53,074 bases of DNA from a bacterium (GCA_963663405.2 CAXXSM010000112.1:1-53074); one strand, 5' to 3'; numbered from the stretch's first letter, positions 4,973-37,673 are shown. The notes: generated from the letters alone by a model not told the origin. A program made the numbers and translations.

Positions 4973-5866
4973 ATGACTGCGCTGGTACGATTATCAAAGA
5001 AATGGAGCGCCGTCTTCCTGGCGGTTCTTCTATTGATCGTAATTCCACTCGACATCCGTTCTCACAGTGTATGGACGCAGCGAAACGAGCCGGGATCGTG
5101 GACCATTGCTCTGTACCATTGTGATGATGAAGAGATTGAAGAAGGCTCGTTTGTGCTCAGCGCCGATGGAAACGAATCACTGCATCTTGTCATTGGCTCA
5201 GCCAGTGAAGATTCAATGGGCTACTCGGACAATGTCAAGCATAATTTTTTACTAAGGTCACTGATTGGGTACTCAGAACAGCATTGTATCGCGAGTGGAG
5301 AGATTACTCATCCAACGGGTGATTTATCCATCGAGTTCTGGCTCCGTTTTATCGAACGCGGCGCGGATCTAGAAATTGGATTGTTGGAAGGCGTCACATT
5401 CCGGATTCGCATTGGTGATGAAGGAGACCGGTTTCAGCTTATGGGGGCAAATGTCACGGACGTTGACATCATGGATTACTGCGCGCCGGGATTTGAGAGT
5501 TTTCCCCCTGTTGGGAGTTGGCATCATTATGGGGTGACTCTCCATGCTCCGAATGTAGAACTAACGGAGACTGGGAATTACCGTTATGGCGATGGGTGTT
5601 ATGCCAGGTTTTATTACGATAGCCATGTTGTTGGTTTCGTCGATCAGACGAAGCAGGACCTAACTGGCTTGGAATTCGCTCCATTTGTAAAACCCGCCAT
5701 TCTCATCCACCACGGAACCATGTCGTTTGATGAGGTCATGGTAAGCGATGTGGATTGGAGCGATCCGGTTGGGCATGAAGGCAGTGGGCATGGGGGCATT
5801 AGCGTCGAACACGCGTTTGAAAATGGCAGGCAACCCGTCGCTGTTTCGAATTGGGATTTGTTTTAA
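4973..5866 (+). CDS. Secreted protein with LamG/concanavalin-like beta-sandwich and C-terminal W-tail
   Basis: Signal peptide; TIALYHCD, LSIEFW, GSWHHYGVT, FDEVMVSD motifs resemble LamG-like domains; RBS AAGGAG; ends PVAVSNWDLF. Confidence 0.6.
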   Translation: MTALVRLSKKWSAVFLAVLLLIVIPLDIRSHSVWTQRNEPGSWTIALYHCDDEEIEEGSFVLSADGNESLHLVIGSASEDSMGYSDNVKHNFLLRSLIGYSEQHCIASGEITHPTGDLSIEFWLRFIERGADLEIGLLEGVTFRIRIGDEGDRFQLMGANVTDVDIMDYCAPGFESFPPVGSWHHYGVTLHAPNVELTETGNYRYGDGCYARFYYDSHVVGFVDQTKQDLTGLEFAPFVKPAILIHHGTMSFDEVMVSDVDWSDPVGHEGSGHGGISVEHAFENGRQPVAVSNWDLF

Positions 5867-6072
5867 ACACAGAGATTATAAGGTAATGCGGATATTCATT
5901 GTCCGTTTTGAATAAATCATTTGTTTTCATTTTATTTTCGCGCACGGGGAAGCGCGGCGTCACATGAGAAATTGAATCATGAAAGGAAGGCGTGGATTCT
6001 TCCAAGTTGTTTCTATGGAACGGCTTGCAAGGAATCACGGCTTCAATATTTTTTAAAAAGGAGAGAAAAACG

Positions 6073-6891
6073 ATGAAAAAACGATGTCTCGTAATAAGCG
6101 CCATTATAATGGCGGGAATGGTTCAATCCGTGTGCGCGCATTTCCCGATGTTGATTCATGATGCGCCTTTTGCCAGCGTCAATCAAATCGTCAACCTGAT
6201 GTTCGCAGTGGGTCACCCCTACGAACAGGAATATGCAAATCCAGCTAAGCCGGAAAAAGTGACAGCAATATTTCCGGATGGCCAGATCGTGGACCTAACG
6301 GATACCTTGTCTCAAGGAACCTATACCGTCGATGAACTGACCGCGAATATTTACGAATTCACGTTCAAACCCGAAGAGCCTGGTGACTTTATCATCGCGC
6401 TGGATTCGGAGCCGGAATTTGGCCTAAACAATACGCTCCTTCAGGAATACTTAAAAATCTGCGTGCATGCGGAAGAACAAGGCGGATGGGATCAACGCAC
6501 GGGTCAACCCATTGAAATCATGCCACTCACCCGGCCCTATGGAATCGAGGAAGGCTATGTCTTCACCGGTCAGGTCCTGAAAGGGGATGAGCCACTGGCG
6601 GGCGTAGAGGTTGAAATCGAACAATTTCTAACTCACGTGCCGGCTTTGGAAGATCTGCCGCCTGAACCATTAATCACCAAAGTAGTAAAAACAGATGCGA
6701 ACGGTGTCTTCTCCCAAACGCTTCCACATCCCGGGTGGTGGATCGCGGCGGCGTCCGTCGAAGACGCGGGTGAAGTGACGAAAGATGGCGGAACGTATAC
6801 TCTTAGCGGTTTGGCGGGGATTTGGATTCATGTCGAAGAAACCTTCATTCAACAGTTTCCTTCGGGAGTCCGGAATTGGCAGAGCCGCTAG
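6073..6891 (+). CDS. DUF4198-family (NikM-like, putative Ni/Co-transport-associated) exported protein with C-terminal W-tail
   Basis: Signal peptide ending CA|HF, GHPYE, GQPIEIMPLTRPYG, VKTDANGVF, PGWW motifs; ends PSGVRNWQSR. Confidence 0.75.
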   Translation: MKKRCLVISAIIMAGMVQSVCAHFPMLIHDAPFASVNQIVNLMFAVGHPYEQEYANPAKPEKVTAIFPDGQIVDLTDTLSQGTYTVDELTANIYEFTFKPEEPGDFIIALDSEPEFGLNNTLLQEYLKICVHAEEQGGWDQRTGQPIEIMPLTRPYGIEEGYVFTGQVLKGDEPLAGVEVEIEQFLTHVPALEDLPPEPLITKVVKTDANGVFSQTLPHPGWWIAAASVEDAGEVTKDGGTYTLSGLAGIWIHVEETFIQQFPSGVRNWQSR

Positions 6892-6923
6892 TGAATTAAA
6901 TAGATTGTGTGATGCAACATGCC

Positions 6924-6966
6924 CGTGGGAAGCGCAAATTCCCCAGCGTTTCCCACGACTTTTTTC
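6924..6966 (+). terminator. Probable intrinsic terminator
   Basis: GTGGGAAGCGC ... GCGTTTCCCAC stem followed shortly by a T-run, downstream of the DUF4198 gene. Confidence 0.6.
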
Positions 6967-7085
6967 CCTCTCATAACATCTCTCTTACATCGATCGATCC
7001 CTCCTGTGGATTCTCAATAGAAATCATTCTATACCGGCGCGCTGGAATATCAGAATCATTTTTTTTGAAAAAAGTAAAAAAAGGC

Positions 7086-7121
7086 TTGACACCCAAAACG
7101 TCTAGGACTATAGTTATAGAC
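7086..7121 (+). promoter_or_regulatory. Sigma70 promoter with an overlapping palindromic operator (probable BlaI-family binding site)
   Basis: TTGACA (7086-7091)-N17-TATAGT (7109-7114); dyad GTCTAGGACTATAGTTATAGAC (7100-7121, 9/11 pairs) covers the -10. Confidence 0.7.
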
Positions 7122-7146
7122 AGAACGGTAAAGAAAGGAAACTCTC

Positions 7147-7542
7147 ATGCGAAAAAAACCGCCGGAACCGTTAACGCCCGCTGAATGGAACATCATGAAA
7201 ATCATCTGGGAATTGAAATCCGCCGGTTCAAGAGAAATTTTCGAAATCGCCGGCAATCGGCACGATTGGGCGATCACGACCGTCAAGACGATCCTCGCCA
7301 ATTTGGTGGAGAAGAAAATTCTCAAAACGAAAGTCACGGGGAATAAATATATCTACAGCCCCACCAAACCAGCGTTCAAAATGCTCGCTCAGGCCGCCGA
7401 TACGCTGATGGATCGAAGCGTGAGCGATCTGAAGGGTAAACTCCTTTGCTATATGGTGGGGAAAACCAGGCTCTCGAAAAGTGAGATCGATGAATTGCAG
7501 AATTTGATTGACGAACAAAAAGAAAAGGAAAAAGAATCATGA
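7147..7542 (+). CDS. BlaI/MecI/CopY family transcriptional repressor
   Basis: LTPAEWNIMKIIW, WAITTVKTILANLVEK, YIYSP, LSKSEIDEL motifs; ATGA overlap with the next gene. Confidence 0.92.
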   Translation: MRKKPPEPLTPAEWNIMKIIWELKSAGSREIFEIAGNRHDWAITTVKTILANLVEKKILKTKVTGNKYIYSPTKPAFKMLAQAADTLMDRSVSDLKGKLLCYMVGKTRLSKSEIDELQNLIDEQKEKEKES

Positions 7543-10130
7543 TCGATCCACAAACGGTGAATTCGATCGCGCCGGTTTGGGCTGGATGGATATTGGCGCG
7601 GACCGTTGATTCGACACTCGTGTTTCTTATCGCGAGCGCTCTATGGCTTCTCTTGCGAAACCGTGTTTCTTCACACGTTGGGTATATTCTCTTCCTTCTC
7701 GTACTCGTAAAACTGCTTTTCCCTATCCAATTCGCGTGTCCAAACATTGGGAAATGGAATCTAGACAGTGTCTCTTATTTTTCCAGCCTCCCGTTTTCCT
7801 TCCTCCTCCATGAAGGGGAGAATGCAGCTACGCAGAAAGAGAAATCATTTCCCAGCGATTGGAAAGAATCAGTATCCCTTACCAAGCGGGATCTATCTAA
7901 TGAACGTGCCTATTGTGATCAATGTAATAGTGTGAAGAAATCAAATAAGGATTCATCCCACATTGTTTCCGCTGGAACTGTATCCAAAGATAAGCGGAAT
8001 GTGTCTAAAGAAAAAATAGCGATTGGTGGGATAACGCGAAAGGAAGAACCTTCTCTTTTCGACACCATAGGATCGATTCAAAAAAACAATCGAAATACAA
8101 CCATCGATGAAATCGTTCAGTCTCATGATAACAATAAATCCGTATCTGAATTCAAAAATGATGAAAATAGAATCCGCGAAGAGATGAGAATCGCATCTTT
8201 ATTGAAAGAGGAAGAGGCCAATCCCAATCCACTTTCTTCCTTATCGATTGTATCGCTGATTATGCTGTTGTGGGGGATCATCACAATTCTCTTATTCGGC
8301 CGTTTCGTCTGTCAGGAATATTGTACTCACAAACGGATTCATCAGTCCGAGATTCTCGATCCAGATCAAATCCCAGTCGATTTTAAAGGCCTGCTCTCGA
8401 TCGCCAATGTGAAACGCCATGTACGGCTTGCGACGAACTCTTGGATACAATCTCCTTTTGTTTACGGTATTTTTACTCCCTGCTTATTCATCCCACGGAC
8501 TCTTTTTACGAGCAATTCTACGAATCAGATCCGGTGGATTCTCCTACACGAACTTGCGCATATCAGACGCTGGGATACAGCGGTCCGGTTGCTGCAGAAA
8601 GTGTGTCAATACCTTTTTTTCTTTCATCCAGCCGTTTGGCTGACGAATAAATGCGTGGATATGCAACGGGAATTTTCCTGTGATGACAGCGCCGTCCTGG
8701 GAACGAACGCGGCGCCCAGTGAATGTGGGAAAGGATTGATGGGAATCATTTTACAAGTAAATCGAGAGCCATTTTGGATGCCGTCTTCGATCGGCATGTT
8801 CAATTCAAAAACCATTATTAAGGAGAGACTCATGAGAATTTTAAATCCCAATCGTACACTTTGTTCCGGACTCTCGCTCCATGCGGGGATCGCTCTTGCT
8901 GCGCTGGCGCTGATCGTGATTCCATTTTCAACGATCGCGTCTACGGGAAAGGCGCAGGAGGAAACCAATGATGGCGCGTTTATTGTATCCGCGCCAAATC
9001 ACGCGGAACCCGCGGAAACCGTGAGTGTAGCGTCAACTACTCAAAGCAGCGCAAGCGTCGTTCAAAGCAGTGCAAGCGCCGCCGCGGAGAAAACCACTGG
9101 TTCTCGTACCATATGTTCGTTTCCAACGGATGATTTCACTATTGTTAAAGAGAATCGATATGTGTGGAAGCGGTCTTTATCATTTCAATTTGGAAAAGTT
9201 AAATCGGTGGAATTCAAAACATTTGATGGCGATATCCAAATCAAAGCGCAACCGGATCCAAATATAAAGAACGTTGAAGTCGACGCGGATTTGATAATCC
9301 AAAAAAAGCCGGAAGTTGATGAATCCGAAGTATTGAAATACAAAGAACAATTCGATCTGGTTATTGAATCCAGCGATAAAGAGAAAGCGGCCGCCGTTGT
9401 CCATCGTCCAAAGCAAACGCCGAAAGGATTGAGTGCCACGGCGAATCTCTATGTTAAATTTCCCGCTGGACTTGATCTAACCGCGAACACGGGTGACGGT
9501 GATATATGTGTCGATGGTTGTGACTGCAAAATGTCGCTAAATTCGAAAGACGGGGATATTATCTCTAAAAATTGTGTGGGCCCGACCAGCGCCAATACGA
9601 TGGATGGAGACATTCTGATCGAAAATACAGAAGAGAATATCCAAGCAGGCACAAAGGATGGAGATGTCATAATTAAAAACTGTCCAGGTCCAATACACGC
9701 CGATTCAAAGGATGGAGACATTAATATTGTCAATTCAGAAAATCCAATCCATGCGGAAACGAAAGATGGGGATGTGATTATGAAAAACTGTCCCGGTCCG
9801 ATTCAGGCAGGCACGAAGGATGGAGATATCCATATCGTCAACGCCAAAGAGAAAATCCAAGCGGAAACAAATGACGGTGAGATTATTCTTGTTTTCGACG
9901 CCACTCCGGCTGATGGTTGCGTTATTGAAGCGAAAGAAGGAGAAATCAATATCGATCTGCCCGATGACGCGAATGTCAATGTCGCGCTTAAAACCCATGA
10001 TGGATCGATTCATGTCCCTGAAAGCCGTTTCTCAGGCGTGAAAAAGGAAAAAGAGGTGGTTGGAAAACTTAACGATGGCGGCGTCAGTATTGTTGCGAAT
10101 ACGAAAGAAGGAGATATCACAATTCGTTGA
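7539..10130 (+). CDS. BlaR1/M56-family metallopeptidase sensor with C-terminal DUF4097-like beta-repeat domain
   Basis: TM segments, SPFVYG, ILLHELAHIRRWD, FFHPAVW, REFSCD, IKERLMRIL; ~19-aa A.TKDGD.I.. repeats at the C-terminus. Confidence 0.88.
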   Translation: MIDPQTVNSIAPVWAGWILARTVDSTLVFLIASALWLLLRNRVSSHVGYILFLLVLVKLLFPIQFACPNIGKWNLDSVSYFSSLPFSFLLHEGENAATQKEKSFPSDWKESVSLTKRDLSNERAYCDQCNSVKKSNKDSSHIVSAGTVSKDKRNVSKEKIAIGGITRKEEPSLFDTIGSIQKNNRNTTIDEIVQSHDNNKSVSEFKNDENRIREEMRIASLLKEEEANPNPLSSLSIVSLIMLLWGIITILLFGRFVCQEYCTHKRIHQSEILDPDQIPVDFKGLLSIANVKRHVRLATNSWIQSPFVYGIFTPCLFIPRTLFTSNSTNQIRWILLHELAHIRRWDTAVRLLQKVCQYLFFFHPAVWLTNKCVDMQREFSCDDSAVLGTNAAPSECGKGLMGIILQVNREPFWMPSSIGMFNSKTIIKERLMRILNPNRTLCSGLSLHAGIALAALALIVIPFSTIASTGKAQEETNDGAFIVSAPNHAEPAETVSVASTTQSSASVVQSSASAAAEKTTGSRTICSFPTDDFTIVKENRYVWKRSLSFQFGKVKSVEFKTFDGDIQIKAQPDPNIKNVEVDADLIIQKKPEVDESEVLKYKEQFDLVIESSDKEKAAAVVHRPKQTPKGLSATANLYVKFPAGLDLTANTGDGDICVDGCDCKMSLNSKDGDIISKNCVGPTSANTMDGDILIENTEENIQAGTKDGDVIIKNCPGPIHADSKDGDINIVNSENPIHAETKDGDVIMKNCPGPIQAGTKDGDIHIVNAKEKIQAETNDGEIILVFDATPADGCVIEAKEGEINIDLPDDANVNVALKTHDGSIHVPESRFSGVKKEKEVVGKLNDGGVSIVANTKEGDITIR

Positions 10131-10344
10131 TGGTGTTGATGATTCACGTGATGTCTATCGTTTTTTTTAATAACCTTATAATTTAAGTCACGCTTCAAAT
10201 TCATCCAAAAAGTTTATGTTGCCTTCCCATATTTTTAAATCTTCTCATTAACGCCTATTCTTTAATAATTCTTTATTAAAGTAATTGATTAGTGTATATA
10301 AAGACCAAGCATAGCGGCGTAACTTGTCTGTTTTTATAAATATT

Positions 10345-10919
10345 TCACTTTTTACTTTCAAACTGCTGTTCGGTATCTTTTTTCTTTGTTCTGATACCCC
10401 ATGTGAAAGTTTTTTTTAATTTTCCAGGTTTTACCCATAATTCAGAGCCAGCCTTGAGTTTAAATACGTATTCCCATGGCTTACTATCTTTTGGTCTTAA
10501 GATGATATCGGCAGGTAGGTATGGTTTGATGGCTGGATGTTCGATCCAATGAGGTTCAATCTGCTGATACTGCGTCCATCCTAATCCAGCATGACAGAGT
10601 TGCCAAAAACTCCCATCCTGCATTTCGAAGACAAGAGGCTTGCCTTTTTCTTTTAGTTCGAATTCCCAAACCCGGACAAGGCGGTGTTTTTGCTTCAATT
10701 TTTGCTTAAGTTCTTTAATCATGTCTTTATCGGGGAGTTGTTCCTCTTCTATACCAGATAGAATGCAGTTCAGGCTGTCCTCTAGTATTTCATCCGTAAG
10801 GCCCAGTTCGTTATATTTACTACGAAACCAGCAAGATATGTCTTCATTCAATTTTGAAAAGATTTCGCTGTAATCATCAAGTTCCTTTATGAGTTCGAAA
10901 ATGTCATCTGTGCGGAACA
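10345..10919 (-). pseudogene. C-terminal fragment of an unknown AT-rich gene, truncated by IS3 copy 1
   Basis: The ORF runs to the IS boundary; its apparent ATG is created by the first base of the IS (10920). Confidence 0.55.
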
Positions 10920-10989
10920 TATACTGTACCCCAAAATTCGGACAGCCATCTAAGGTAGGTTACCTCGAAGCCGACAATAGGTAGAAGAG

Positions 10990-11289
10990 GTGAACCAAAT
11001 GATGAAAATGCGAAAAAATTTTGATGGAGCGTTCAAAGGCAAAGTGGCACTGGAGGCAATCAAAGGAGAGAAGACCTTAACCCAGATAGCGAGCGATTAC
11101 AAAATTCATGTGAGCCAGATTCGACAGTGGAAAAAGCGCCTGTTGGAAGAAATCCCAGGCTTGTTTTCACGCAAGCAAGAAAAGAGTCAAGCGGAAGCCG
11201 AAGAACTGACGTCGGAACTTTACCGCCAGATTGGGCAAATGAAAGTCGAACTTGATTGGGTAAAAAAAAAGTCTAACGTGCTCAGTTAA
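10990..11289 (+). CDS. IS3 orfA (HTH)
   Basis: FKGKVALEAIKGEKTLTQIAS..IH.SQI.QWKK and ELYRQIG..VELDWVKKK. Confidence 0.9.
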   Translation: MNQMMKMRKNFDGAFKGKVALEAIKGEKTLTQIASDYKIHVSQIRQWKKRLLEEIPGLFSRKQEKSQAEAEELTSELYRQIGQMKVELDWVKKKSNVLS

Positions 11290-12109
11290 GAAAAGACGAA
11301 GTTGGATCGAACTAACTAATTCTGAGATTTCAATAAAGAGGCAATGTGAATTGCTGGGGTTGTCTCGTTCAGGATTTTATTATCAACCCGTGGGCGAATC
11401 AGCCGAAAATGTAGCGCTGATGAACCTGCTTGATGAACAATATACCCGGACACCGTTTTACGGAATTCGGAAAATGCAGAAATGGTTGAGAACTCTAGGA
11501 CGGGTTGTGAATAAGAAACGAATCGGTCGTTTAATGCGAGTGATGGGCTTGGAGACGATCTACCCGAAGCCTCGTTTGAGCCTCGGAAATGTTCAGCATA
11601 AGAAATATCCATACCTGTTGAAGGGAGTGAAAATCGAAAGACCCAATCACGTGTGGAGCACCGATATCACCTATATACGTATGCGCCAAGGATTTGTTTA
11701 CCTGGTGGCGATCTTAGACTGGTTTAGTCGTTATGTGGTGTCATGGAAAGTCTCCACTTCGATGGAGGTTGACTTTTGCCTCGAAGCGTTGGAGATGGCT
11801 TTTGAAATTGATAAGCCAACGATCTTCAACAGTGACCAAGGCTCTCAATTCACAAGCACGGATTTTACGAGTCGCTTGAAGAAAGAGAGGACTCTCATCA
11901 GCATGGATGGAAGAGGCCGAGTGTTCGATAATATTTTCGTCGAACGGTTATGGCGGTCAGTGAAATATGAGGAGGTCTATATCAAAAGTTACGAAACGGT
12001 GAATGATTGTGTGCGCGGACTAACGGATTATTTTCAGTTCTACAATAATGAGCGTCTACACCAAGCCTTGGGATATAAGACGCCGCTTCAGGTTTATAGA
12101 GAACACTAG
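11264..12109 (+). CDS. IS3 orfB (DDE integrase core)
   Basis: WSTDITY, FNSDQGSQFTS, DNIFVERLWRSVKYE; frame open from the A9 run (KKSLTCSVKKRRSW...RQCELLGLSRS). Confidence 0.9.
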   Translation, partial: KKSLTCSVKKRRSWIELTNSEISIKRQCELLGLSRSGFYYQPVGESAENVALMNLLDEQYTRTPFYGIRKMQKWLRTLGRVVNKKRIGRLMRVMGLETIYPKPRLSLGNVQHKKYPYLLKGVKIERPNHVWSTDITYIRMRQGFVYLVAILDWFSRYVVSWKVSTSMEVDFCLEALEMAFEIDKPTIFNSDQGSQFTSTDFTSRLKKERTLISMDGRGRVFDNIFVERLWRSVKYEEVYIKSYETVNDCVRGLTDYFQFYNNERLHQALGYKTPLQVYREH

Positions 12110-12445
12110 AAAACTTGACGGTCCAAGAACTTTGCGTTTGAGTTTTTTAAGGCATTGGCAAATGCTCTGGATTATCTTGAAATGATCGAAAAAAGGGGAT
12201 GATCTGATACGTCTCCCTGACGGCAATCCGTCGCACACGCACCAGGATATCCCTTGACCGGTTGCTCTACAGCAGAACCGATCTCCGTTTCTCCTGGTAG
12301 TGTATAATATCGGAAAGTTTTATGAGAATCTGGAATCATCATGATTTCCGGATCCCAAATAAGGAGACTTGAGTTGAACGAAATCGAGGTTGAAAACCTA
12401 CTTTAAATTTCCTTGATTCCTGTCTTGACAATGGGGTACACCTCA

Positions 12446-12634
12446 GATGTGAGCGCCTGGACTGTTTTTCGCTAGTGTTACTGTCTGGGCCCCCACACCG
12501 CAACCCGCTTCCAAAACTAGGCTTCCGGGGGGATAGCCTGTATCGGAATGGAGTAAATCGGCGAGTGTCGACGCTTGGTCTTGCAGGCGGATATTTTCTC
12601 TCGGATCGTATCCATGAACGTATCGGTTTTCCAT
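12446..12634 (-). pseudogene. N-terminal fragment of a class I SAM-dependent methyltransferase truncated by IS3 copy 1
   Basis: MENRYVHGY...RLQDQA...VLEAGCGVGAQT; the frame ends on a TGA supplied by the IS end. Confidence 0.8.
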
Positions 12635-12755
12635 GTTCTCCTCTGCTGGATCGAAGGGATGTAGCAATGTCCATCTGCTTTCTAACGATTGAGATTACTG
12701 GAGATAACGAATGAGTATATGGAAAAGCGCTTATAAACCGGAGTGGAAAAATAAT

Positions 12756-12784: not shown

Positions 12785-12812
12785 CCAAATCGAAAACATC
12801 AATTACATAAAT

Positions 12813-13793
12813 TTAGAACACGGACCAATCCACAACATTGGAACCGTCTCCTAAAGGATCGTCACTCGTGAACCGCATTTCCCGGAAAAATTCAACCTGG
12901 GATTCATTCGCTTGATCCCAACGCTGGAGGTGGAATTGTTCATCATCCCAATCGACCCAATTGATGTTAAATCCAATCGGCTCATCCGGCTCAAAGGATG
13001 GGAACACCCCCCAGGGGAATTTGATCTCCTGAACGTAAGACGTGTGCTGTTCGGGAGGATTATCATCCAATTGCACGGCGCGTTCGATCTGGTCGATAAT
13101 CGCTTTTTCCGCATCGTCTTCGGTATTAAGCGCAGAACGGAAGAGCGCGTAATCCAAAGGCAATCCATTGGCCATGACTGGCTCCATGTCGAATTCTTCT
13201 TTGATGATCACCGCGTCGATGCTAAATGCGGATTGGAGATCAAATTCCGACGTCTGGTCATCATTGATATTATAGGGAAGCCGATCATTGTCGTTATCGA
13301 ACCAGATCTCAATGCCGTCATTAGTGAATCCAGGCTGGTTATTAATGTCCCGTTCGGGGTATGAACTTTGAAACCAGCCAATCAGGTCATCCGTCACAAT
13401 GTTTAAAAGATAAAAACCTGTGTCATCCCACCCGATATACGTGGTCGCGGTGAAATCATCTTCACTGGTTTCATAATTCGCATTGTTGCTGCAGAGCACT
13501 TTGTTGGGATCAAACTCAAAGTGATCGCCTGTCGTCAGCGCGTCTTCTTCAAACGCGTTATCAGTTGGATCGCTGCTAAATTGCTGCCCTTCTGGAACAT
13601 CCAACATCGTGGCCGGATCTCCGAAAGCGTCCAAAGGCCAGTCGGATGGATCACCATCGATCGTTATTTGGATCCCCGCCGCAAATTTCCGGCAGTTGAT
13701 AAACCGGTCCTGCGCCAAAAGAGTATCCGCGGCCAAACAAAAAACGAAAAGAAACGCACAAAAATATATCAATCGATAATCTCTCTTCATCAT
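12813..13793 (-). CDS. Secreted acidic protein with CBM9/DOMON-like sugar-binding fold and C-terminal W-tail
   Basis: Signal peptide after RBS GGAGG; ITIDGDPSDW, GWDDTGFY..VTDD, DGIEIWFD, Y.QEIKFPW, IGFNI..DWD; ends GSNVVDWSVF. Confidence 0.7.
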   Translation of the reverse strand: MMKRDYRLIYFCAFLFVFCLAADTLLAQDRFINCRKFAAGIQITIDGDPSDWPLDAFGDPATMLDVPEGQQFSSDPTDNAFEEDALTTGDHFEFDPNKVLCSNNANYETSEDDFTATTYIGWDDTGFYLLNIVTDDLIGWFQSSYPERDINNQPGFTNDGIEIWFDNDNDRLPYNINDDQTSEFDLQSAFSIDAVIIKEEFDMEPVMANGLPLDYALFRSALNTEDDAEKAIIDQIERAVQLDDNPPEQHTSYVQEIKFPWGVFPSFEPDEPIGFNINWVDWDDEQFHLQRWDQANESQVEFFREMRFTSDDPLGDGSNVVDWSVF

Positions 13794-13810
13794 ATCCTCC
13801 CCTGGTGTAT

Positions 13811-13900
13811 ATGAAAATGAGTTTCCGAGACTTGCTCGTTCACATTCGCTCCCGCAACACATTTTCATCTGTGGTTATGGTCTCGATGATGCTGGTTTAT
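13811..13900 (+). repeat. Dispersed intergenic repeat, copy A (hairpin + tail)
   Basis: ATGAAAATGAGTT...AACACATTTTCAT followed by CTGTGGTTATGGTCTCGATGAT; aligns by eye with 26924-27004 and with 47201-47293 (reverse). Confidence 0.8.
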
Positions 13901-23393: not shown

Positions 23394-23951
23394 CTACGGT
23401 CCAAAGACAATGATATCCCCCCAGGAATTCACTCCGTTGGAGGTATCGTATTGGATCGCGTCGGGTTGGCTGGAGATCTCTTCCTGGCCGTCCGGCGCAC
23501 GGCTGAGCAGGATGTACTGCGCCCCACTGCGATAGGCGTTAAAAACCGTAGGACCGGTCCAACCCGTTCCAGCGCTGGTGACGCCCTCCAGCCAGATAAT
23601 GTGCCAAGCCATGTAAAAGCCACCGTGCTGCGCGTAGCGATCGGTATCTTTCGGCATATTCATTTCCGTCCAAAACACGTCATACGGCGTGAAAGGAAGG
23701 TATGACACCGGCTCTTGCAGCATTTTCCAATTCTCTGGATCATTATTCGTTGGTGGATACTTGTTGTAATCGATTTTGTACATTTCAAAAGCGGTGCGGA
23801 TCGCCCGTAAATCCGCTTCGGCGCGGGCGACCTTCGCCCGGACCTGCGCATTGAGAAAATTGGGCACGGCGATGGCGGCGAGGATGCCGATGATCGCTAC
23901 GACGATTAATAACTCGATTAATGTGAACGCTTTCATGAACCGTTGGATCAT
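23394..23951 (-). CDS. Type II secretion GspG-like / type IV prepilin-like protein
   Basis: AFTLIELLIVVAIIGILAAIAVPNFLNAQVRAKVAR...; C-terminus YDTSNGVNSWGDIIVFGP; start placed at 23951. Confidence 0.9.
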   Translation of the reverse strand: MIQRFMKAFTLIELLIVVAIIGILAAIAVPNFLNAQVRAKVARAEADLRAIRTAFEMYKIDYNKYPPTNNDPENWKMLQEPVSYLPFTPYDVFWTEMNMPKDTDRYAQHGGFYMAWHIIWLEGVTSAGTGWTGPTVFNAYRSGAQYILLSRAPDGQEEISSQPDAIQYDTSNGVNSWGDIIVFGP

Positions 23952-24109
23952 TTCATTTTCTCCATCGTATTGGAAGGATGCGCGTATCCCCCACGCGTTC
24001 ATCCACATATTCCCTGCAGAGATATTTCTCATGCTATACCATATCATAAAAGGAGAGAGAAAAAAAGAAAACCTTAACGAATTTACATCTGTGTTAAAAG
24101 GTGATTCGA

Positions 24110-25980: not shown

Positions 25981-25987
25981 GGGTCGC

Positions 25988-30782: not shown

Positions 30783-30941
30783 TCTTGTTCTTTCTCCAAT
30801 TTGTTTTGTAATTTTTGTATTATAGATGAGAGATGGGCTTTCTATCACCAATTATGTCACACGTTACTATTTCAGGTAACCCAGGTCTTACGGAAAGTGA
30901 GTACTTTTTTAATATGTGAGGTTTATTAAAAAAACGGATAT

Positions 30942-31038
30942 CTTGGAAACATTATGTTTCCAAGGGGTGAAACACTGGCTAGTGTTTAATGTCCCTCCGG
31001 GATAAAAGAAAATATCCCGAGGGTTTCAACCCTGGGGA
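30942..31038. repeat. Cluster of short palindromes (REP-like)
   Basis: CTTGGAAACA/TGTTTCCAAG, AAACACT/AGTGTTT and CCCTCCGGGATA/TATCCCGAGGG stems in tandem. Confidence 0.55.
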
Positions 31039-31044
31039 TACGCG

Positions 31045-31665
31045 CTCAGGTTTTGGCCAAGAGTTGATCCGCGAAATGAAACAGCGATTGGTACGCCCCC
31101 TTTCATTTTGGCTTTGTAATGTTTCCCTTTAGCCTGGGCGATTTTATTGATTTTAAATAAAAGTCGCCGAAGTTTTTTTTGTAAGTGTTTGTGCTGACGC
31201 CAACCCGCTGCGTTGACTATGTTCGCCAGAACGGGAGCGACGTTCAATAGTTTGCGAAGGCCATCTCCAATTAAACTGGAATCCGTGGGATAGTGAATAT
31301 TGGTTGACACAACAAAGGAATCCCCACGGACCGACTTGAAGGCGTCCGGAACAAATTCTTGCCCTTCCAGCGCAATCCATTCGCTGATTTCCTGAATGGT
31401 CTCCGGACTGACACGGCAGAGATTTTGATTGATCCTTCGCCAATCAAATTTGGTCTGGGTATCCCAATCGCCGATCCCCATGATGTGCCGCAACGCTTGG
31501 TGTTGTTCCGCCAAGTCCTGCAGTTTGTCATAATCCAAATTGCAGCCCAAGCGAACCGATGACAGCACTAAGATTTGCCAGTAATCCATACCGGGGCGGC
31601 CATGTTTACTACTGGATTTCCCATTGACATCCTGAGCGATCCGATTCAGAATTTTGTCAAAGATG
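31045..31665 (-). pseudogene. Truncated IS5-like/ISNCY transposase fragment
   Basis: GRPGMDYWQILVL...NLDYDKLQDLAEQH..LR.IMG and RGDSFVV.TNIHYPTDSSL; both termini missing; no IRs found. Confidence 0.75.
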
Positions 31666-31670
31666 ATTCA

Positions 31671-32034
31671 TCAGCGAATCATCTCCTTCGCCTCTTCCAA
31701 CGTAGGATAATGTTCAAAGAATTCATCTAATCGGAGAATTTCAATTAGATGTTGGATCTGCTCGTGAATGGTCGTGAATGGTCCCGGTGAACACAACCTT
31801 CGCCTTCTTTTCATTGGCCAGCTGCATGGCTTCCACCAGCGTAGCGATACCGGAACTATCAATATATTCTGATTTATTAAAATCAATGATAAGACCCAGA
31901 ATATTATCGGAAAAGACTTGATTAATCGCCTTGCGTAACTTGGGTGAATGCGCGGAATTGACCGGGCCATCCAATTCAATCACGGCGATTCGATCGTCTT
32001 GCGTAATGTGCAATTCAAGTGGTTTTACGTTCAC
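31671..32034 (-). pseudogene. STAS-domain anti-sigma-factor antagonist, frameshifted by a 10-bp tandem duplication
   Basis: EYIDSSGIATLV motif; TCGTGAATGG x2 at 31762-31781; removing one copy restores ...GTIHEQIQHLIEILRLDEFF...EMIR*. Confidence 0.8.
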
Positions 32035-32199
32035 AATATCGGCTGCAATCCATTCGTTTTGATTTTACACTACAATACAAATCCATTATTTCGCAAGTGA
32101 TATAGACCATTCTATCCATTATACCCAGCGCGTCAGGAAGAAGGATATTCAGAATTATGTTTGTCCTCATAAGCCGTTGGTAATAGTCTTGCATCGTAA

Positions 32200-33042
32200 T
32201 CACACGGGTTTGTTTCCAAGATCGATCGAACTTTCCGCTCCATGCTTCGAATCCCGGTCCAATGAATCAAATGGAGCTTGAAGGGAAGCCGAATGCGGGG
32301 GATGTTCGGGTACGAATTCCCAGGGATGAACGTAAATCACCGGTGGATGGCCTTCTGATTGATAACGGATGCGGGCGCGGGGTGAGGTACCATTCCGGTA
32401 GAATCCGCAGCGTGCCGCCTCCTCCAACAGGAAAACCGTCGTTCCCAAACCAGCTCCACAACAGAAGGTGGAATTTCGGTGAGACCATGAAGCGTATAAG
32501 GATGCCGGGGGAGCGGTCCGGTCTCCATACAGATAGTTCTGCTGCGGATTGATCGAAGAATCGTAGAGAATTCCTCGATCCCGCAGAATCTTGAATTGCC
32601 ATTCTTTGTTTCGATCCAAAGAGAACGCGGGAAGGCGCGATGCCCGGTGACCGCTTGCGAAGACGCAAGTGATCGCAGGATAGCCAGGGCTCCTGTCGAT
32701 GGAGGAAGCGAACGCCTGTTCGTCCAATTGATGAACGTAAGTATGATTGTATGTATGCGTCGCAATCTCATGGCCTTTTTTCAACGGTCCATTCCACGAT
32801 CTCTGGATACCGTTCCCGCGAGCCAGCCGATGAAAAAGAACGTTCCATGAACGCCGTATTCGTCTAGGAGATTGAGACACCGTTCCATGCCTAAATGGAT
32901 AGCGGATGGAGTATGAATCCCAATCTTGAAACGGGATACATTCCGGACTCATAAAATAATCTTCCACATCCACCGTAAAGACAACAGTATTACGGGAATC
33001 AGCGGGATACAGAATACGGCCTTCGGAATTGGATAGCGGCAT
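32200..33042 (-). CDS. Polysaccharide deacetylase (DUF3473-type), frameshifted
   Basis: FTVDVEDYF, GHEIATHTY.H, YDSSI.P, PVGGGGTLR, YVHPWEF in different frames; 3' end approximate. Confidence 0.8.
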   Translation of the reverse strand: MPLSNSEGRILYPADSRNTVVFTVDVEDYFMSPECIPFQDWDSYSIRYPFRHGTVSQSPRRIRRSWNVLFHRLARGNGIQRSWNGPLKKGHEIATHTYNHTYVHQLDEQAFASSIDRSPGYPAITCVFASGHRASRLPAFSLDRNKEWQFKILRDRGILYDSSINPQQNYLYGDRTAPPASLYASWSHRNSTFCCGAGLGTTVFLLEEAARCGFYRNGTSPRARIRYQSEGHPPVIYVHPWEFVPEHPPHSASLQAPFDSLDRDSKHGAESSIDLGNKPV

Positions 33043-33079
33043 AATATAATATAGGTTTTATCTCAAATCGAGCGAACCG

Positions 33080-34909
33080 TTATGAAGAACTGGCTACGAC
33101 GACGAAGTTACAGGGAAAGCGTATGACGCCTCCGCTTGATGAAGCGGCTGTTGATGTACGCGCTTCCCTACACAGTGGTATCTGATCCTGTCGTTTTTCG
33201 TCCTGAGTGGCTTTTACAACGACTTGAATTGTTCGCCTCCGTCTATTTATACAAGTTAGTCGTAGACCATTTCATTCAATCCGGAAACGCGCAGGGATTA
33301 ACGCTGCTGGCGCTGCTTTACTTTCTTTTGCTGGTAGCCGCGCTGCTTTTTCAGATCGTAGAATTTTATCTCGTCAATGTGATGAGCCAAAAAACCATGT
33401 ACGATCTGCGGCTTTCACCTCATTCCGTCATCTTGAACGGATGTCCCTTCGTTTTTTTCAACAGCCGTCCGGTTGGGACTCTTCTCACACGGATCTCTAG
33501 TGATATTGAAGCCCTCGATTCGATGTTCGCCAACTGCATCGGTTTTCACATTCAACGATATACTGACGATTATTGGATTGATCGTAATCATGCTCTACTT
33601 GAGCCCGGAACTCACGCTGGTGACGCTCGCCGTGCTCCCGATCATCATTCTCGCCAGTTTTTACATTTAAAAAAAGGGTGCGTATCGCATGTACCCGGAA
33701 ACGTCCGGCGATATCTCTCCCGCATGAACGGTTTTCTGCAAGAGAGCATCACGGGCATGGAAACCATCCAAATCTTCGGGCGCCAAAAACGATATTTCGA
33801 TCAATTCGCCGGCCTGACCTGTCAATACAAACACGCCAACCTGAAGCAGCGTATTCAACTTCGCCGTGTTTTATCCAACGGTGGATTTTCTCGGTTCACT
33901 GGCGGTCGCCGCGCTTCTCTGGTATGGGGGCGGGCAAATGCTGGCCGATTCGCCCACGCTGACCTTTGGAACGCTGGCGGCGTTTCTTTCCGCGTCGCAG
34001 AAATTCTTCCAGCCGATCCGCGACCTGGCTGATAAATTCAACATCATGCAGACCGCGATGGCGGCGTCCCGAGCGGGTCTTTAAACTCCTTGACACGCAT
34101 GAAATCATCCCGGAAGCGGAAACGCCGATCCGGAAACCGTTCAAAGGCCATGTGGAGTTTGAAAACGTCTGGTTCGCCTATAATGAAGGGGAATGGGTTC
34201 TTAGAGATGTATCATTTTCCGCCCCGAAAGGGAAGCGGATCGCTCTCGTAGGCGCGACTGGATCGGGCAAGAGCACGATCATCAACCTGCTGTTCCGCTT
34301 CTACGACACGCAGCGGGGAACCATCCGTATCGACGGCGTGGATATCAAAGACTACGCGATCGAAGATTTACGAAAACACATCGGATTGGTCCTGCAGGAT
34401 GTGTTTCTTTTTTCGGGCGATATCGCGGGTAACATCGGCCTGGAAAGGCCTGACATCGATGAAGAATACAATCCAACGCGCGGCCCAATTGGCGCAGGCG
34501 GATTCGTTCATTCAAAAAATCCCCGGCGGCTATCATGCAGAGGTGAAAGAACGCGGCGCGACCCTCTCCACCGGACAACGGCAGCTGCTCTCCTTCGCAC
34601 GGGCGCTCGCGATCGATCCAACAATCCTTGTGCTGGATGAGGCGACCTCCAGCGTCGACACCGAAACCGAACATCTCATCCAAACCGCCCTGGACCGCTT
34701 GATGGAGGGCCGCACCTGCATCATCGTCGCGCATCGTCTTTCCACGATCCAGAAAGCCGACGAAATCCTGGTCATCCACAAAGGTCAAATCGCCGAACGC
34801 GGCAAACATGATGAGTTATTGAAAAAAGAAGGGCATCTACTACCGGCTCTATCAGCTGCAGTACAAAGATGAATTGGCGCAGGAAGTCGAAGAACCGGTT
34901 ACAAAATAA
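33080..34909 (+). CDS. ABC exporter (fused permease + ATPase, MsbA/MdlB-like), frameshifted
   Basis: PVG.LLTRISSD, FFQPIRDL, GATGSGKST, LSTGQRQLL, LDEATS, IVAHRLSTI across frames; start approximate. Confidence 0.88.
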
Positions 34910-34962
34910 TAACTATTCCAAGAAACCTATAGTAGTAGAAAATATTGATAAGGAAATTGTTT

Positions 34963-35350
34963 ATGGCGATCGATCCAACCACCATCGCAGTCATCGGCGC
35001 GTCATCCAACCGGAGAAAATATGGCAATATCGCCTGTCCGCGCGTTCAACGATAAAGGTTTCACCGTCTACCCCGTCAATCCACACGAGCAAACCATCGA
35101 AGGGGCTTCTCTGCTATGCGTCAATCAAAGAAATCCCCGGTCCCGTAGAGATCGCCACACTCTATATCCCACCGGAAAACAGCGCGCCGATTCTAGGACG
35201 AAATCGCCGAAAAAGGAGTCAATCTCATCTTCTGTCAATCCCGGCGCGGAGAGTAAGGAGACCATCGCCCGCGCCAAGGAACTGGGAATGGAACCTATCC
35301 AAGGCTGCAGCCTCATCGCAGCCGGAACCACCCCCGCCGCGTATTTGTAA
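34963..35350 (+). CDS. CoA-binding protein (YccU-like), frameshifted
   Basis: TIAVIGASS..RKYG, VYPVNP, NPGAES, GCSL. Confidence 0.8.
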
Positions 35351-35362
35351 ATCAGCGCCGGA

Positions 35363-37673
35363 TCAATGCAATCGCCAAGCGCTGATCGATGTATCTCCTC
35401 GCAAATCCCATAATTTAATAAGCCAACTTGAAGTTTCTGTCATGGCCCAGTTGCCATCCTGCGAAACTTGCACGGATGAGATGGAATAGGGATGCGCCTG
35501 CATTGTACGGGTAATGTTCCCCGAAAGTGGTGTCAAAGAGGATCAAGCGGCCATCCGCCGTTCCCGCCAGGAGTGTGGCTCCGTCCGAAAGTGAACGCGA
35601 CAGAGTTGATTTCTGCGTTAGGAGACTCAAAAGTGGTTAGAGTCTCTCCTGTCACTGGTTCATGCAACTCCATCGCAAAGCCACCACTCTCATCGGCCAC
35701 GGTGAGAATCTCACTGCGATCTGGAGCGAACAGCGCATCCTTGATGGAATCCAAAGAGCGGATGAAAGTCTCCGTCTCAACATCCCACAGACTCCACATA
35801 CGCATGAGCCCCATCTACTGTGTATACACGTCCGATAAGAAACGCGACCGTCATGAGAGAAATGGGGTCTTGCGTCACGCTGCCATTCTCATCACTATAC
35901 GTAAGGAACGGAAACGTCTTCACGATATCCCCTGTCTCCACATCAACCAATTCCCCTTCCCAATGCCATTGATTCCCGCTTCCCTTGTCGCTTTACTGAC
36001 GACTAAAAGACTCTGACCATCTGGATGGAATAAATGGAATAAACATAATCCTTCCCTCCCAATTGAAGGCCCCGCTTCACGGTTCCCGCCGCCACATCCC
36101 ATAGGATCGCAAGACCCGACGGCCCCCATGAATCAAATGTCCAGGTCAACAAAAGACTGCCATCCGGAGAAAACTCCACCCAATTCACACCGTCGTTCGA
36201 CACATAATTCCAAACTTCTTCACCCGTTTCTACATTCCACATTCGATGAGGAGAAATATATGCGTTATCTTCCTGCGACCAGCGCATGTAGCTTGGCCGT
36301 GTGACAACATACGCGCTGTCCGGTGAAAACAGTCCTGTTAAGAATTGATCATCATCGGCTTGAAAAACATGCGTAGGAGATTGATTTTCGATATCCCATA
36401 TAAATCCATCTCCATGTTCAACTTCGGAAGGAAGACCATAGAAATAATCCATCGGAATACCAAAGACTAATTGCTGTTTGGAGAAAAATGTGGCGAACCA
36501 ATCAAAGATTTTGCTTTCCCGATCGAGCTGGATGACTGACATTTTTTCTTCTTTTATCACACTCCCAAACGCCGCTAAGAACGTATTCCCATCAGGTGAA
36601 ATGGCCACAGAATTCACAATTTCGTCTAAATCTTGATAGTAATCTACATCCGTTGATGGATACGATTGAATGATCTCACCCGTTCGAGTGTTAAGCAGAC
36701 TCGCATTCCCCCATTCATACATATCATCCAATCCATAATCCCATCCTCCATGTCCGATAATACAGACTTGCCCATCCGAAGAAAACGCGACAGATTCTAC
36801 GGCGCCGTATGATTCAAACATCCAACGCTGGCTCCCGGTTTCTAGATCCCATAATCGAGCGGTATCATCTGGAGTATCTGATTCCCATTCGCTGCTTCCT
36901 CCTGTAAGAATCATAGAGCCATTCGGGAAACCGCCACGGATCGAACATCCCCATCATGTCCTCGGTAAGATTGTACGGTCTGCCTGGAATCCACATGGAT
37001 CAACAAACACTTCACCCAATTGCCCCCCCGTGACAATATGCTCTCCATCTGGAGTAAACGCGCCGGCATAGCCTGGAAATGAAGCGATCTTTATCCCGGT
37101 TTCCGTCTCCCAAATTCGGACGGTATGATCATCGCAACCCGTCATAACACGCTGACCATCGGGTGAAAAACAGACAGAAATAACTGCGTCTGGATGAGGG
37201 GAAAAGGTTCTGATTTCAACGCCCGTTTCCGCATTCAATAGAACTGCGGACCCATCCCCAGATCCACTTAGCGCATACCGCCCGTCTGGTGAGAAAGCAA
37301 CCGCAAACACTCCACCCGTATGCCCATCAAAGCGCCAGATCTCTTCACCGGTATTCGTATCCCACAGCCGTACTGTTTGATCGTAACTCCCGGTCAATAC
37401 ATACGCGCCGTTCGGAGAATAGACAGCGGAATTGACGAGACCGGTATGACCGGAATACGTTTGAGGCTCTCGCTCCGGAAGCTGCGTGGGGGAGTTGCAT
37501 GAAGAACAAATTACTTAAAAGCGTGAGAACAAACTGCCCGATTATTTTCTGACAGGATCAGGCAGTTTCAACAAAATAATTGCCCATACAGACCTATGCA
37601 GAATTGATAATCCAAAGAGGCGCACTCTTAGCCAATGCGGAGAATTCATCCAAACCATGTTTCGATCACTCAT
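35363..37673 (-). CDS. WD40-repeat beta-propeller protein, frameshifted, with C-terminal W-tail
   Basis: Many FSPDG...TGS.D.T.RLWD repeats; RBS AAGGAGG before ATG 37673; manually read last frame ends ...LIKLWDLRGDTSISAWRLH*. Confidence 0.85.

Follow-up and report, generated by a model that had tools for sequence, protein, structure and literature searches.

This study revealed that 180 of the 6619 open reading frames (ORFs) of the 8.4-Mb genome (G000) of an uncultured bacterium end in the same short tail, with the consensus [TVS]-[PSA]-[VI]-x-[DN]-W-x-[LVI]-[YFH]-stop, and that this tail is restricted to exported proteins, on which it is found attached to unrelated folds. Sequence comparisons suggest, with a probability of about 0.6, that the tail serves as an autonomous C-terminal tag for sorting or docking, with a job like that of the C-terminal domain (CTD) of the type IX secretion system (T9SS), the type II secretion/pseudopilus route being the most likely one. 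The tail had initially been noticed on four proteins of the window, by which we mean the whole stretch of 53,074 nucleotides that was analysed. About 1.4 members would be expected among the 53 ORFs of the window at the genome rate; the window is not enriched, and the signal is a property of the whole genome, not of the window.

The tail consists of a nine-residue motif preceded by a linker rich in E, P and G, and measures about 9-12 residues in total. It was scored with a position matrix built from the last 14 residues. According to this matrix, the motif is the exact C-terminus of 147 of the 180 carriers, 142 of which terminate with an aromatic-type residue (Y, F or H). In the other 33 carriers, it is followed by 1-4 residues, which indicates no requirement for a free carboxylate at a fixed distance. 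The conserved positions are -9, -7, -4, -2 and -1. None of 33,095 random internal windows used as a control reached a score of 8 bits, and a full internal scan with the matrix gave just nine truly internal matches at 12 bits or more. The simpler pattern [VI]..W...$ terminates 163 of the 6619 non-overlapping ORFs with a length of 100 aa or more, where composition alone predicts about 14; among the 6051 discarded shadow ORFs, it occurs in only 14. Tryptophan was counted 274 times at position -4, versus 69-145 times at the other 19 C-terminal positions. The motif and its strict C-terminal position are established genome-wide and far above chance, in an assembly that is 82% complete and contains frameshift errors.

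The four tails reported in the initial annotation were all recovered from the sequence of the window. The LamG-like protein (4973..5866, + strand, 297 aa), an exported protein with a signal peptide and a weak Laminin_G_3 match, ends in PVAVSNWDLF (5834-5863, stop at 5864-5866). The CBM9-like exported protein (12813..13868, - strand), which has a CBM9_1 match, ends in GSNVVDWSVF (12816-12845, stop at 12813-12815). The WD40 beta-propeller gene (35363..37514, - strand) is interrupted by several frameshifts, as had been noted for its N-terminus, with WD40 Pfam matches on three pieces; the last piece (35363-35542, stop at 35363-35365), of 59 aa, contains a WD40 repeat (residues 9-46), after which the tail DTSISAWRLH follows immediately. 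An intact WD40 protein of 1392 aa, encoded elsewhere in the genome (L013), is also tail-bearing. The fourth protein, of the DUF4198 type (6073..6891, + strand, 272 aa from its MKKRC start, PF10670 match over residues 22-231), ends in PSGVRNWQSR (FPSGVRNWQSR, 6856-6888).

As the matrix scores are 24.0, 18.7 and 15.6 for the LamG-like, CBM9-like and WD40 tails, respectively, and only 1.5 for the DUF4198 tail, three of the four are clear members. The view that all four share one signal holds for these three, but the DUF4198 tail is a weak variant, which keeps V(-7) and W(-4) and lacks the terminal [LVI][YFH] pair. Its 11 closest homologs, 10 of which are full-length, keep an extension of about 14 residues of the form [ST]x[VI]xxWxxx, and more distant homologs stop without it at the domain boundary (...WVHVE). 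In the CBM9-like family, all 35 members terminate in ...PLGGxx[VI]xxWx[LIV][FYHQ], the tryptophan being invariant over 33 aligned sequences, and the tail is conserved among orthologs down to 36% identity.

With regard to structure, the AlphaFold2 model of the CBM9-like protein (mean pLDDT 85) places the last strand at residues 303-313, and the tail residues 317-325 have a pLDDT below 50. The tail is thereby predicted to be unstructured and outside the carrier fold, as an appended module, which speaks against it being part of the fold of homologous proteins. No model covered the tail in a Pfam scan of 33 carriers, and no C-terminal or sorting-domain model was found in NCBIfam at E up to 1 for 23 carriers, in keeping with the earlier suspicion that it has no existing name.

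The scan of the proteome also confirmed that the tail is a position-specific tag of exported, unrelated proteins. A signal-peptide-like N-terminus was found in 142 of 180 carriers versus 2070 of 6439 other ORFs (Fisher p 8e-37), as called by a home-made heuristic that flags membrane proteins as well. Signals of the Tat type (RRxFL) were found by pattern in 10 of the 180 carriers, and several of the carriers without a signal-peptide call are of the Tat type or truncated. Lipoproteins are depleted, with a lipobox in 3 of the 142 signal-peptide-bearing carriers versus 165 of the 2070 other signal-peptide ORFs. The domains of the carriers are unrelated and include Laminin_G_3, CBM9, LTD+CotH, LRR, papain C1, sulfatases, WD40, cohesin/dockerin and choice-of-anchor X.

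The tail has a close parallel in the type A CTD of the T9SS (PF18962, TIGR04183), with which enzymes, lectins and adhesins that have a signal peptide and are otherwise unrelated likewise end. The size of the cargo set is also comparable, with about 180 carriers here and at least 138-150 PF18962 matches in two T9SS genomes. Moreover, the two occupy the same slot in homologous proteins: in one family of 266-276 aa, all three members from Sumerlaeota end in the tail, and all eight complete homologs from Bacteroidota/Ignavibacteria carry PF18962 (Por_Secre_tail). The Sumerlaeota tail thereby sits exactly where the homologs have their type IX CTD. Nevertheless, the tail is not itself such a domain. 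PF18962 gave no match in G000 and G383 (controls: at least 150 and at least 138) and is absent from the 33 Pfam-scanned carriers, and SprA (TIGR04189) exceeded the cut-off in none of the 35 genomes of the host class and none of three Sumerlaeota genomes, while both Ignavibacteria/Bacteroidia controls were positive. The tail comprises 9-12 residues, predicted to be unstructured, in contrast to a folded beta-sandwich with a profile of 75 positions, which agrees with the initial annotation in setting it apart as far shorter. A further difference is that some tail carriers have Tat-type signals.

Other known C-terminal signals were rejected as well. LPXTG/sortase, PEP-CTERM/exosortase, GlyGly-CTERM/rhombosortase, PGF-CTERM/archaeosortase and MYXO-CTERM/myxosortase formed the panel for comparison (bioRxiv 10.1101/2023.06.07.544157). 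The tail resembles these tripartite signals in being a short C-terminal signature, present on many unrelated exported proteins per genome and restricted in lineage. In contrast, it has no transmembrane helix or basic cluster in any of the 180 carriers, in which at most four residues separate the motif from the end of the protein, and no curated model matched in the 23 carriers compared with NCBIfam; TIGR02595 had no match in the genome, in a search run without a positive control. The distinction from LPXTG, PEP-CTERM and GlyGly-CTERM that had been drawn at the outset is therefore valid. The beta-signal of outer-membrane BAM substrates shares with the tail a terminal aromatic residue preceded by hydrophobic positions. 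However, the beta-signal follows an alternating -1/-3/-5/-7 register, which differs from the -9, -7, -4, -2 and -1 of the tail, and the carriers are soluble multi-domain proteins rather than barrels. As W-x-L occurs in the tail, the WxL cell-wall-binding domain of Firmicutes was also considered. That C-terminal domain spans well over 100 residues and contains two WxL motifs; no such Pfam family was found in 33 carriers, and the tail is a single motif of 9-12 residues.

The host class is probably Hinthialibacterota/OLB16, and the tail is present in all 35 genomes of this class. A DNA pattern for the tail gave 62 matches in G000, versus 2 for the control pattern; of the other 34 genomes of the class, 32 had clearly more matches than with the control (5-55). 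The remaining two, G026 (3 matches) and G028 (1 match), are at the pattern background, and each still has at least one real tail-bearing ORF. The tail also extends to a section of a second phylum, Sumerlaeota/BRC1, where all 13 genomes of family f36 were positive (7-39 pattern matches). Of 366 other genomes sampled, 364 gave 0-4 pattern matches and showed no tail. It is thus not specific to one lineage, contrary to what had been assumed.

Regarding how such a tag could work, carriers would cross the inner membrane by means of their N-terminal Sec or Tat signal, and the tail would remain unfolded in the free protein. A common envelope receptor could then bind it, probably as an added beta-strand, since the conserved residues are distributed over both faces (-9, -7 and -1 on one, -4 and -2 on the other), and would either export the folded cargo from the periplasm or retain it on the cell surface. 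The tail would thus play the part that the type IX CTD has in Bacteroidota. The likeliest route would be type II secretion or a pseudopilus, with dedicated GspG-like paralogs co-expressed with some of the cargo. The sorting role, the strand binding and the type II route are each what we infer from the sequences. Of the secretion or surface-attachment signal that had been proposed, the C-terminal tag, its position outside the fold and its use of the type IX slot are supported, and the role in export is suggested.

The type II route is consistent with several observations. G000 contains three type II secretion system (T2SS) clusters with the genes E-F-G-H/I/J-K-L-M-D, where D is the secretin N-terminal part, as well as 145 GspG-like pseudopilins. 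Folded cargo of the Tat type requires a channel that passes folded proteins, and Sec or Tat export as a first step, together with conserved pseudopilin-cargo operons, is a likeness to T2SS cargo (T2SSG PF08334, N_methyl PF07963); Sec/Tat-like signals and T2SS clusters are both found here. A GspG-like pseudopilin gene adjoins 20 of 180 tail genes versus 85 of 1949 other signal-peptide genes (p 4e-4), on the same strand in 14 of the 20 pairs, although such a neighbour is found for only 11% of tail genes. In one family of tail proteins, 11 of 12 homologs (at least 41% identity; 9 genomes, 3 families) have an abutting upstream pseudopilin, and in two Sumerlaeota genomes tail genes are immediately preceded by a member of the same pseudopilin subfamily.

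Such a pair also occurs in the window, where it is split by an insertion element. The 5' part of a GspG-like pseudopilin gene (2019..2354, + strand), with the prepilin motif SFTLIELLIVVAIIGVLAAIAVPNF, is interrupted by a transposase element (2342-4580, Transposase_29 match on 2345-4057). The ORF that follows (4627..4938, + strand) has, in its C-terminal 40 residues, the 3' end belonging to that pseudopilin family (...GPD...SNGxxSxGDIxRFGP) and aligned with the pseudopilin alignment A6 in hhalign with a probability of 95.5% (E 1.4e-8). The LamG-like tail gene lies 34 nt downstream. A second GspG-like paralog (23394..24047, - strand, 217 aa) exhibits the prepilin motif and the C-terminal SNGxxSxGDI.

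The distribution of these genes is less specific. Among 75 Sumerlaeota genomes, tail-positive and tail-free alike, the pseudopilin subfamily was found in 75, GspK in 62 and a GspL ortholog in 75, none of them with the phyletic pattern of a dedicated reader, and GspK had no match in the tail-positive G439 (97% complete). No reader of the tail emerged from these comparisons. In other phyla, numerous prepilins occur in genomes that lack the tail (41 in G046 and 28 in G059). T2SS genes are present in both tail-positive and tail-free genomes, so that their phyletic distribution does not discriminate between the two. The link with a prepilin-based machine that had been suspected is therefore backed by adjacency and conserved pairs, but pseudopilins and T2SS genes occur equally in tail-free relatives.

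To our knowledge, T2SS substrates are generally held to lack a shared linear signal. Tentatively, the tail could be the first export signal of a type II secretion/pseudopilus system that is both linear and transferable, a reading that we regard as possible and rather unlikely. The T2SS, or the neighbouring GspG-like paralogs, would then capture folded Sec/Tat cargo through this nine-residue strand and either push it out by way of the secretin or present it on the cell. If true, this would explain the dozens to hundreds of orphan pseudopilin genes in these phyla, and perhaps in the PVC group.

Alternatively, the tail could be a non-covalent surface-retention tag that is independent of type II secretion and docks cargo, whatever its export route, on a surface scaffold, an outer-membrane protein or lipopolysaccharide, acting as a minimal dockerin or donated strand to keep enzymes and lectins on the cell. 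The carriers are mainly lectin-like, carbohydrate-binding or degradative and would gain from staying cell-bound, and some have choice-of-anchor X domains. The depletion of lipoproteins is expected for an alternative anchor, residues are conserved on both faces of the potential strand, and the phyletic distribution of T2SS and pseudopilin genes does not follow that of the tail. However, no candidate scaffold was found, a lone nine-residue peptide is a weak anchor, and the conserved pseudopilin-tail gene pairs are left unexplained; this alternative is rather unlikely.

It is less likely still that the tail has no part in localisation and is read, for cleavage maturation, quality control or regulated turnover, by a periplasmic binder of C-terminal peptides, such as a PDZ protease or chaperone (HtrA/DegP, Prc or CtpA type). 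PDZ domains of DegS and the HtrA family bind hydrophobic or aromatic C-termini, and outer-membrane protein C-termini (Y-x-F) activate DegS. The end of the tail (aromatic, x, hydrophobic, aromatic-COOH) is similar to such ligands, as is the exact C-terminal position in most carriers, but the trailing residues of the other 33 would be poorly tolerated by a carboxylate-anchored pocket, and conservation reaches -9 and -7, past the usual PDZ ligand. The tail is limited to two lineages, unlike such near-universal proteases, and its swap with a secretion domain suggests localisation. That the tail is non-functional, as a by-product of composition, a DNA element repeated at gene ends or the last strand of a fold, is highly improbable: nothing in its favour was found beyond the DUF4198 tail, which proves that weak look-alikes exist, and it is contradicted by the roughly 12-fold excess over composition, the near absence from shadow ORFs, codons that vary freely between copies and so exclude a DNA repeat, the conservation among orthologs, the unrelated carrier folds and the AlphaFold2 model.

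Besides these tail genes, the window contains a short open frame (12407..12475, + strand) beside an IS3-type element, which ends in ...YTSDVSAWTVFR*. Its matrix score is 12.8, with a single residue after the motif, and it may be what is left of the 3' end of a further tail gene.

A short C-terminal motif, [VI]-x-x-W-x-x-x-stop, which the initial annotation had described on four proteins of the window, was found to be a genuine feature of the whole genome. The assembly of this Hinthialibacterota bacterium (GCA_963663405.2, here G000) comprises 8.44 Mb in 170 contigs and is 82% complete; contig C112 is one whole contig of 53,074 bp. We called 12,670 ORFs of at least 100 aa, of which a greedy non-overlapping subset of 6,619 was kept. 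The motif forms the end of 163 of the 6,619 kept ORFs, compared with approximately 14 expected from composition; among the 6,051 overlapping ORFs that were set aside, only 14 end in it. Tryptophan occupies position -4 in 274 of the kept ORFs; at the 19 other positions among the last 20, its count ranges from 69 to 145. A position matrix over the last 14 residues, iterated until convergence, yielded 180 carriers, about 2.7% of the called ORFs (180/6,619): 147 proteins end exactly in the motif, while 33 carry 1-4 trailing residues, mostly one E, K or D. Among the 147 exact-end proteins, position -9 is T (80), V (41) or S (18), position -8 is P (34), S (31) or A (31), position -7 is V (116) or I (25), position -5 is D (46) or N (34), position -4 is W (142), position -2 is L (95), V (21) or I (18), and position -1 is Y (83), F (31) or H (28). 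The 20 residues preceding the tail show a mild excess of G, N, P and E and a deficit of K, R and C. Of 33,095 internal 14-mers drawn at random, none scored 8 bits or more on the matrix. A complete internal scan gave 38 matches of at least 12 bits; 29 of them are 1-4 residues away from the C-terminus, and only 9 are truly internal. As the tail codons vary freely from copy to copy among the DNA-pattern matches in this genome, selection acts on the peptide and not on a DNA repeat.

With regard to export, a signal-peptide-like N-terminus, judged by a simple heuristic, was present in 142 of the 180 carriers and in 2,070 of the 6,439 other ORFs (odds ratio 7.9, p = 8e-37), which bears out the proposed enrichment of the tail among exported proteins. 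Many of the 38 carriers without such a call are visibly truncated or have a Tat-type RRxFL motif, two sulfatases among them. Lipoboxes are scarce, with 3 in 142 carriers versus 165 in 2,070 other signal-peptide ORFs. The carriers are indeed unrelated: a Pfam search with 33 of them returned Laminin_G_3, CBM9, LTD with CotH, LRR, papain C1, sulfatase, WD40 propellers and cohesin with dockerin, and many had no Pfam match at all. Choice-of-anchor X domains were found in two of the 23 carriers compared with NCBIfam (E up to 1). One 873-aa tail protein (locus L069, C130:124423-127044) combines cohesin with dockerin type I and has a pseudopilin gene directly downstream.

All four tails reported in the window are present as described, with matrix scores of 24.0 for the LamG-like protein (4973-5866, + strand), 18.7 for the CBM9-like protein (12813-13868, - strand) and 15.6 for the WD40 protein (35363-37514, - strand). 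The DUF4198 protein (6073-6891, + strand) scored only 1.5, and its tail is therefore a weak variant. The WD40 gene is split over several reading frames; its last piece encodes a WD40 repeat followed directly by ...RGDTSISAWRLH-stop. A 22-codon open frame at 12407-12475 (+ strand), which ends in ...YTSDVSAWTVFR* and scores 12.8, could be what is left of a gene with the tail, adjoining the IS3-type element. This element (10990-12109, + strand) has two ORFs, HTH_Tnp_1 and then an rve integrase; an identical orfB start recurs at 43308-44066 (+ strand), and about 20 paralogs occur across the genome.

A tail that belongs to the carriers' folds was one of the outcomes named in the initial annotation as refuting a signal. 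In the CBM9-like family, each of the 35 members has the ending ...REMRFTSDxPLGGxx[VI]xxWx[LIV][FYHQ], even at identities as low as 36%; some of the close homologs carry the NCBI label 'Candidatus Omnitrophota'. In an AlphaFold2 model of the CBM9-like protein, built from a 33-member alignment (mean pLDDT 85), residues 303-313 form the last strand, and the tail, residues 317-325, has a pLDDT below 50. The 11 closest DUF4198 homologs, 10 of them full-length, keep an extension of about 14 residues with [ST]x[VI]xxWxxx, and more distant ones end at the domain boundary with ...WVHVE. The predicted model and the homolog comparison both place the tail outside the fold.

C-terminal sorting signals determine which proteins get to the bacterial surface. 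To our knowledge, the catalogued ones are all either a folded domain, as in type IX secretion (T9SS), or a motif with a membrane helix that is cut by a dedicated enzyme. In contrast to the folded T9SS sorting domain, the tail comprises nine residues and no membrane segment, and would be a different solution to the same surface-sorting problem. A direct comparison is provided by a secreted family of 266-276 aa, in which the tail stands at the end in all three Sumerlaeota genomes, whereas homologs from Bacteroidota and Ignavibacteria have the same domain followed by the T9SS sorting domain PF18962 in 8/8 complete C-termini. Another homolog is cut short by the end of its contig, and a Verrucomicrobia homolog of 2,327 aa has neither tail nor PF18962. 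The T9SS translocon protein SprA was above the cut-off in none of the 35 genomes of the class and none of the three Sumerlaeota, and present in both control genomes; PF18962 had no match in G000 or in the Sumerlaeota genomes G383 and G232, nor in G408, compared with 150 and 138 in the controls. In lineages without T9SS, the tail therefore stands where homologs have a known secretion signal, and its cargo set is similar in size. PEP-CTERM (TIGR02595) gave no match in G000, in a search run without a positive control.

The comparison with NCBIfam returned no model spanning the tail (23 carriers, E up to 1), nor is it covered by any Pfam model (33 carriers). We found no published description of it in searches of open-access full text. 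In PMC9324843, on Hinthialibacter, the terms 'secretion', 'C-terminal' and 'sorting' do not occur, and among the matches listed for C-terminal sorting and choice-of-anchor domains none dealt with this motif. No open-access paper was found that combines Sumerlaeota with secretion systems and C-terminal signals, and the older name BRC1 led only to unrelated genes called BRC1. What is new here is the extension of the tail to Sumerlaeota, with tail-free lineages inside that phylum; the direct T9SS-domain swap with translocon controls; the structural evidence on the tail; and the conserved synteny with pseudopilins, along with the negative outcome of its phyletic test. The tail could serve as a small portable tag for testing secretion or display and, in Hinthialibacterota and Sumerlaeota, both inferred to degrade polysaccharides, as a simple predictor of the exoproteome.

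The taxonomic spread was examined with a DNA pattern for V-x-[DN]-W-x-[hydrophobic]-[YFH]-stop and its reversed pattern as control. G000 gave 62 matches versus 2 for the control, and 32 of the 34 other genomes of its class gave 5-55, clearly over control. The remaining two, G026 and G028, had 3 and 1 matches, equal to background. Despite these counts, real tails were found in both, two in G026 and one among 309 ORFs in 400 kb sampled from G028; both thus have low counts and were rejected as tail-free controls within the class. Outside the class, the pattern was applied to 366 genomes of about 264 other families, and 364 of them had 0-4 matches, similar to the control; in G144 and G267, with four matches each, none lay at an ORF end. 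The two exceptions, G064 and G383 (9 and 7 matches, control 0 in both), belong to a single family of Candidatus Sumerlaeota (BRC1), and their signal-peptide proteins end in ...[AS]GV[ASE]DW[STA]LY-stop. Eight of these proteins used as queries gave one weak BLAST match to G000 and otherwise no homologs. Among 75 Sumerlaeota genomes, the families f36 (13/13 genomes, 7-39 matches), f271, f279-283 and f285 are tail-positive, and f272, f274, f276-278 and f186 are at background. None of the 303 ORFs in 400 kb sampled from G232, a complete tail-free genome, had the tail, and no other common C-terminal motif was seen. For the window itself, the source name of one 54%-identical homolog likewise makes Hinthialibacterota (OLB16) the probable phylum. 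The suggested restriction of the signal to one lineage is not supported: all 35 genomes of the class have the tail, and so does part of Sumerlaeota.

A type II/IV pilus-like machine had been put forward as a possible reader of the tail. G000 has three type II secretion (T2SS) clusters and 145 GspG-like pseudopilin paralogs of about 200 aa (N_methyl plus T2SSG). A tail gene adjoins such a pseudopilin in 20 of 180 cases, compared with 85 of 1,949 other signal-peptide ORFs (p = 4e-4); in 14 of the 20 pairs both genes share a strand, and the gap can be as short as 6-8 nt. In a BNR-like tail family (440 aa), a pseudopilin abuts the gene on its upstream side in 11 of 12 homologs at 41% identity or more, which come from nine genomes of three families. 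In the full set of 30 homologs, a pseudopilin occurs on the same strand within 1.5 kb in 17, and the tail scores at least 8 in 23. Tail genes of the Sumerlaeota genomes G383 and G439 also have a member of this pseudopilin subfamily immediately upstream, with a 4-nt gene overlap in G439. Prepilin neighbours in this phylum were seen in 20-kb loci and in none of the loci extending mostly 1.5 kb per side; besides pseudopilins, only ABC ATPases and housekeeping genes recur beside tail genes. In the window, a pseudopilin gene (5' part 2019-2354, 3' end within 4627-4938) ends 34 nt before the LamG-like tail gene. It is split by a transposase element (2342-4580, - strand) with a Transposase_29 match of 571 aa at 2345-4057 and an overlapping upstream ORF, which suggests a frameshifted or two-part gene.

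The adjacency and the conserved pairs give some support to the proposed link; nevertheless, the phyletic distribution does not single out a dedicated reader. The pseudopilin subfamily and the ortholog of GspL from the C29-type cluster of G000 each occur in 75/75 Sumerlaeota genomes, and GspK in 62/75, in tail-positive and tail-free genomes alike, so none of them is supported in this role. A T2SS cluster type specific to tail-positive Sumerlaeota was likewise rejected, as the same type occurs in tail-free genomes. Structure prediction of a pseudopilin-tail complex (10-row pseudopilin alignment, residues 32-186, with 28 rows of 45-residue C-termini) gave no answer (score 0.00), which speaks neither for nor against binding. 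Prepilin and tail counts correlate within the class (Spearman 0.63, n = 35 related genomes); as a general predictor of tails the prepilin count fails, since genomes of other phyla with 28-41 prepilins have none. In G046, G059 and G070 (other phyla, 2.0-4.2 Mb), 20-41 FTLIEL-type prepilin genes were observed with no tail signal, and large pseudopilin expansions therefore arise independently of the tail.

On the sequence evidence, the tail is consistent with a short autonomous tag for sorting or docking, borne by proteins already across the inner membrane. The cargo would cross this membrane first, and the tail would act afterwards. Unstructured when free, it would be bound by a receptor through strand addition, which is plausible given that conserved residues lie on both faces of the would-be beta-strand. 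The T2SS is the obvious channel for folded proteins and would fill this role for folded tail cargo, given that some cargo is Tat-type and T9SS is absent. The conserved pseudopilin-cargo operons also point to a T2SS route. The tail might instead be a surface-retention tag that acts without the T2SS, in line with the occurrence of GspK, GspL and the pseudopilin in tail-free Sumerlaeota; this alternative, which leaves the operons unexplained, is less likely. Recognition of the same C-terminal end by a C-terminal-binding protease is more improbable still. If the pseudopilin link of the sorting tag is true, what T2SSs recognise and the role of large orphan pseudopilin families would become experimentally approachable.

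The two canonical GspG major pseudopilins of G000 end in DDIGNWEDEE (C29:10306-10764, L073) and DDITNWNTEKR (C118:121921-122391, L075), where [IV]-x-N-W resembles the tail core V-x-[DN]-W. These ends score negative on the tail matrix, tails occur in 0/145 prepilins of G000, and the likeness could be due to chance or to mimicry. In one T2SS cluster, the protein at the GspC position (C133:27773-28534; L074:1777-2535) has a membrane anchor and an HR-like segment; instead of PDZ it has a long disordered stretch rich in Gly and Arg, together with a charged helix, and it has no Pfam match. Elsewhere in the window, 7147-10130 (+ strand) encodes a BlaI-type repressor (Penicillinase_R) followed by an 863-aa BlaR1-type M56 peptidase, in which a long C-terminal DUF4097 'toastrack' repeat region replaces the penicillin-binding sensor. 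An ABC-transporter ATPase/permease gene at 33136-34872 (+ strand) extends over at least three overlapping frames, which is consistent with single-base frame errors in the assembly.
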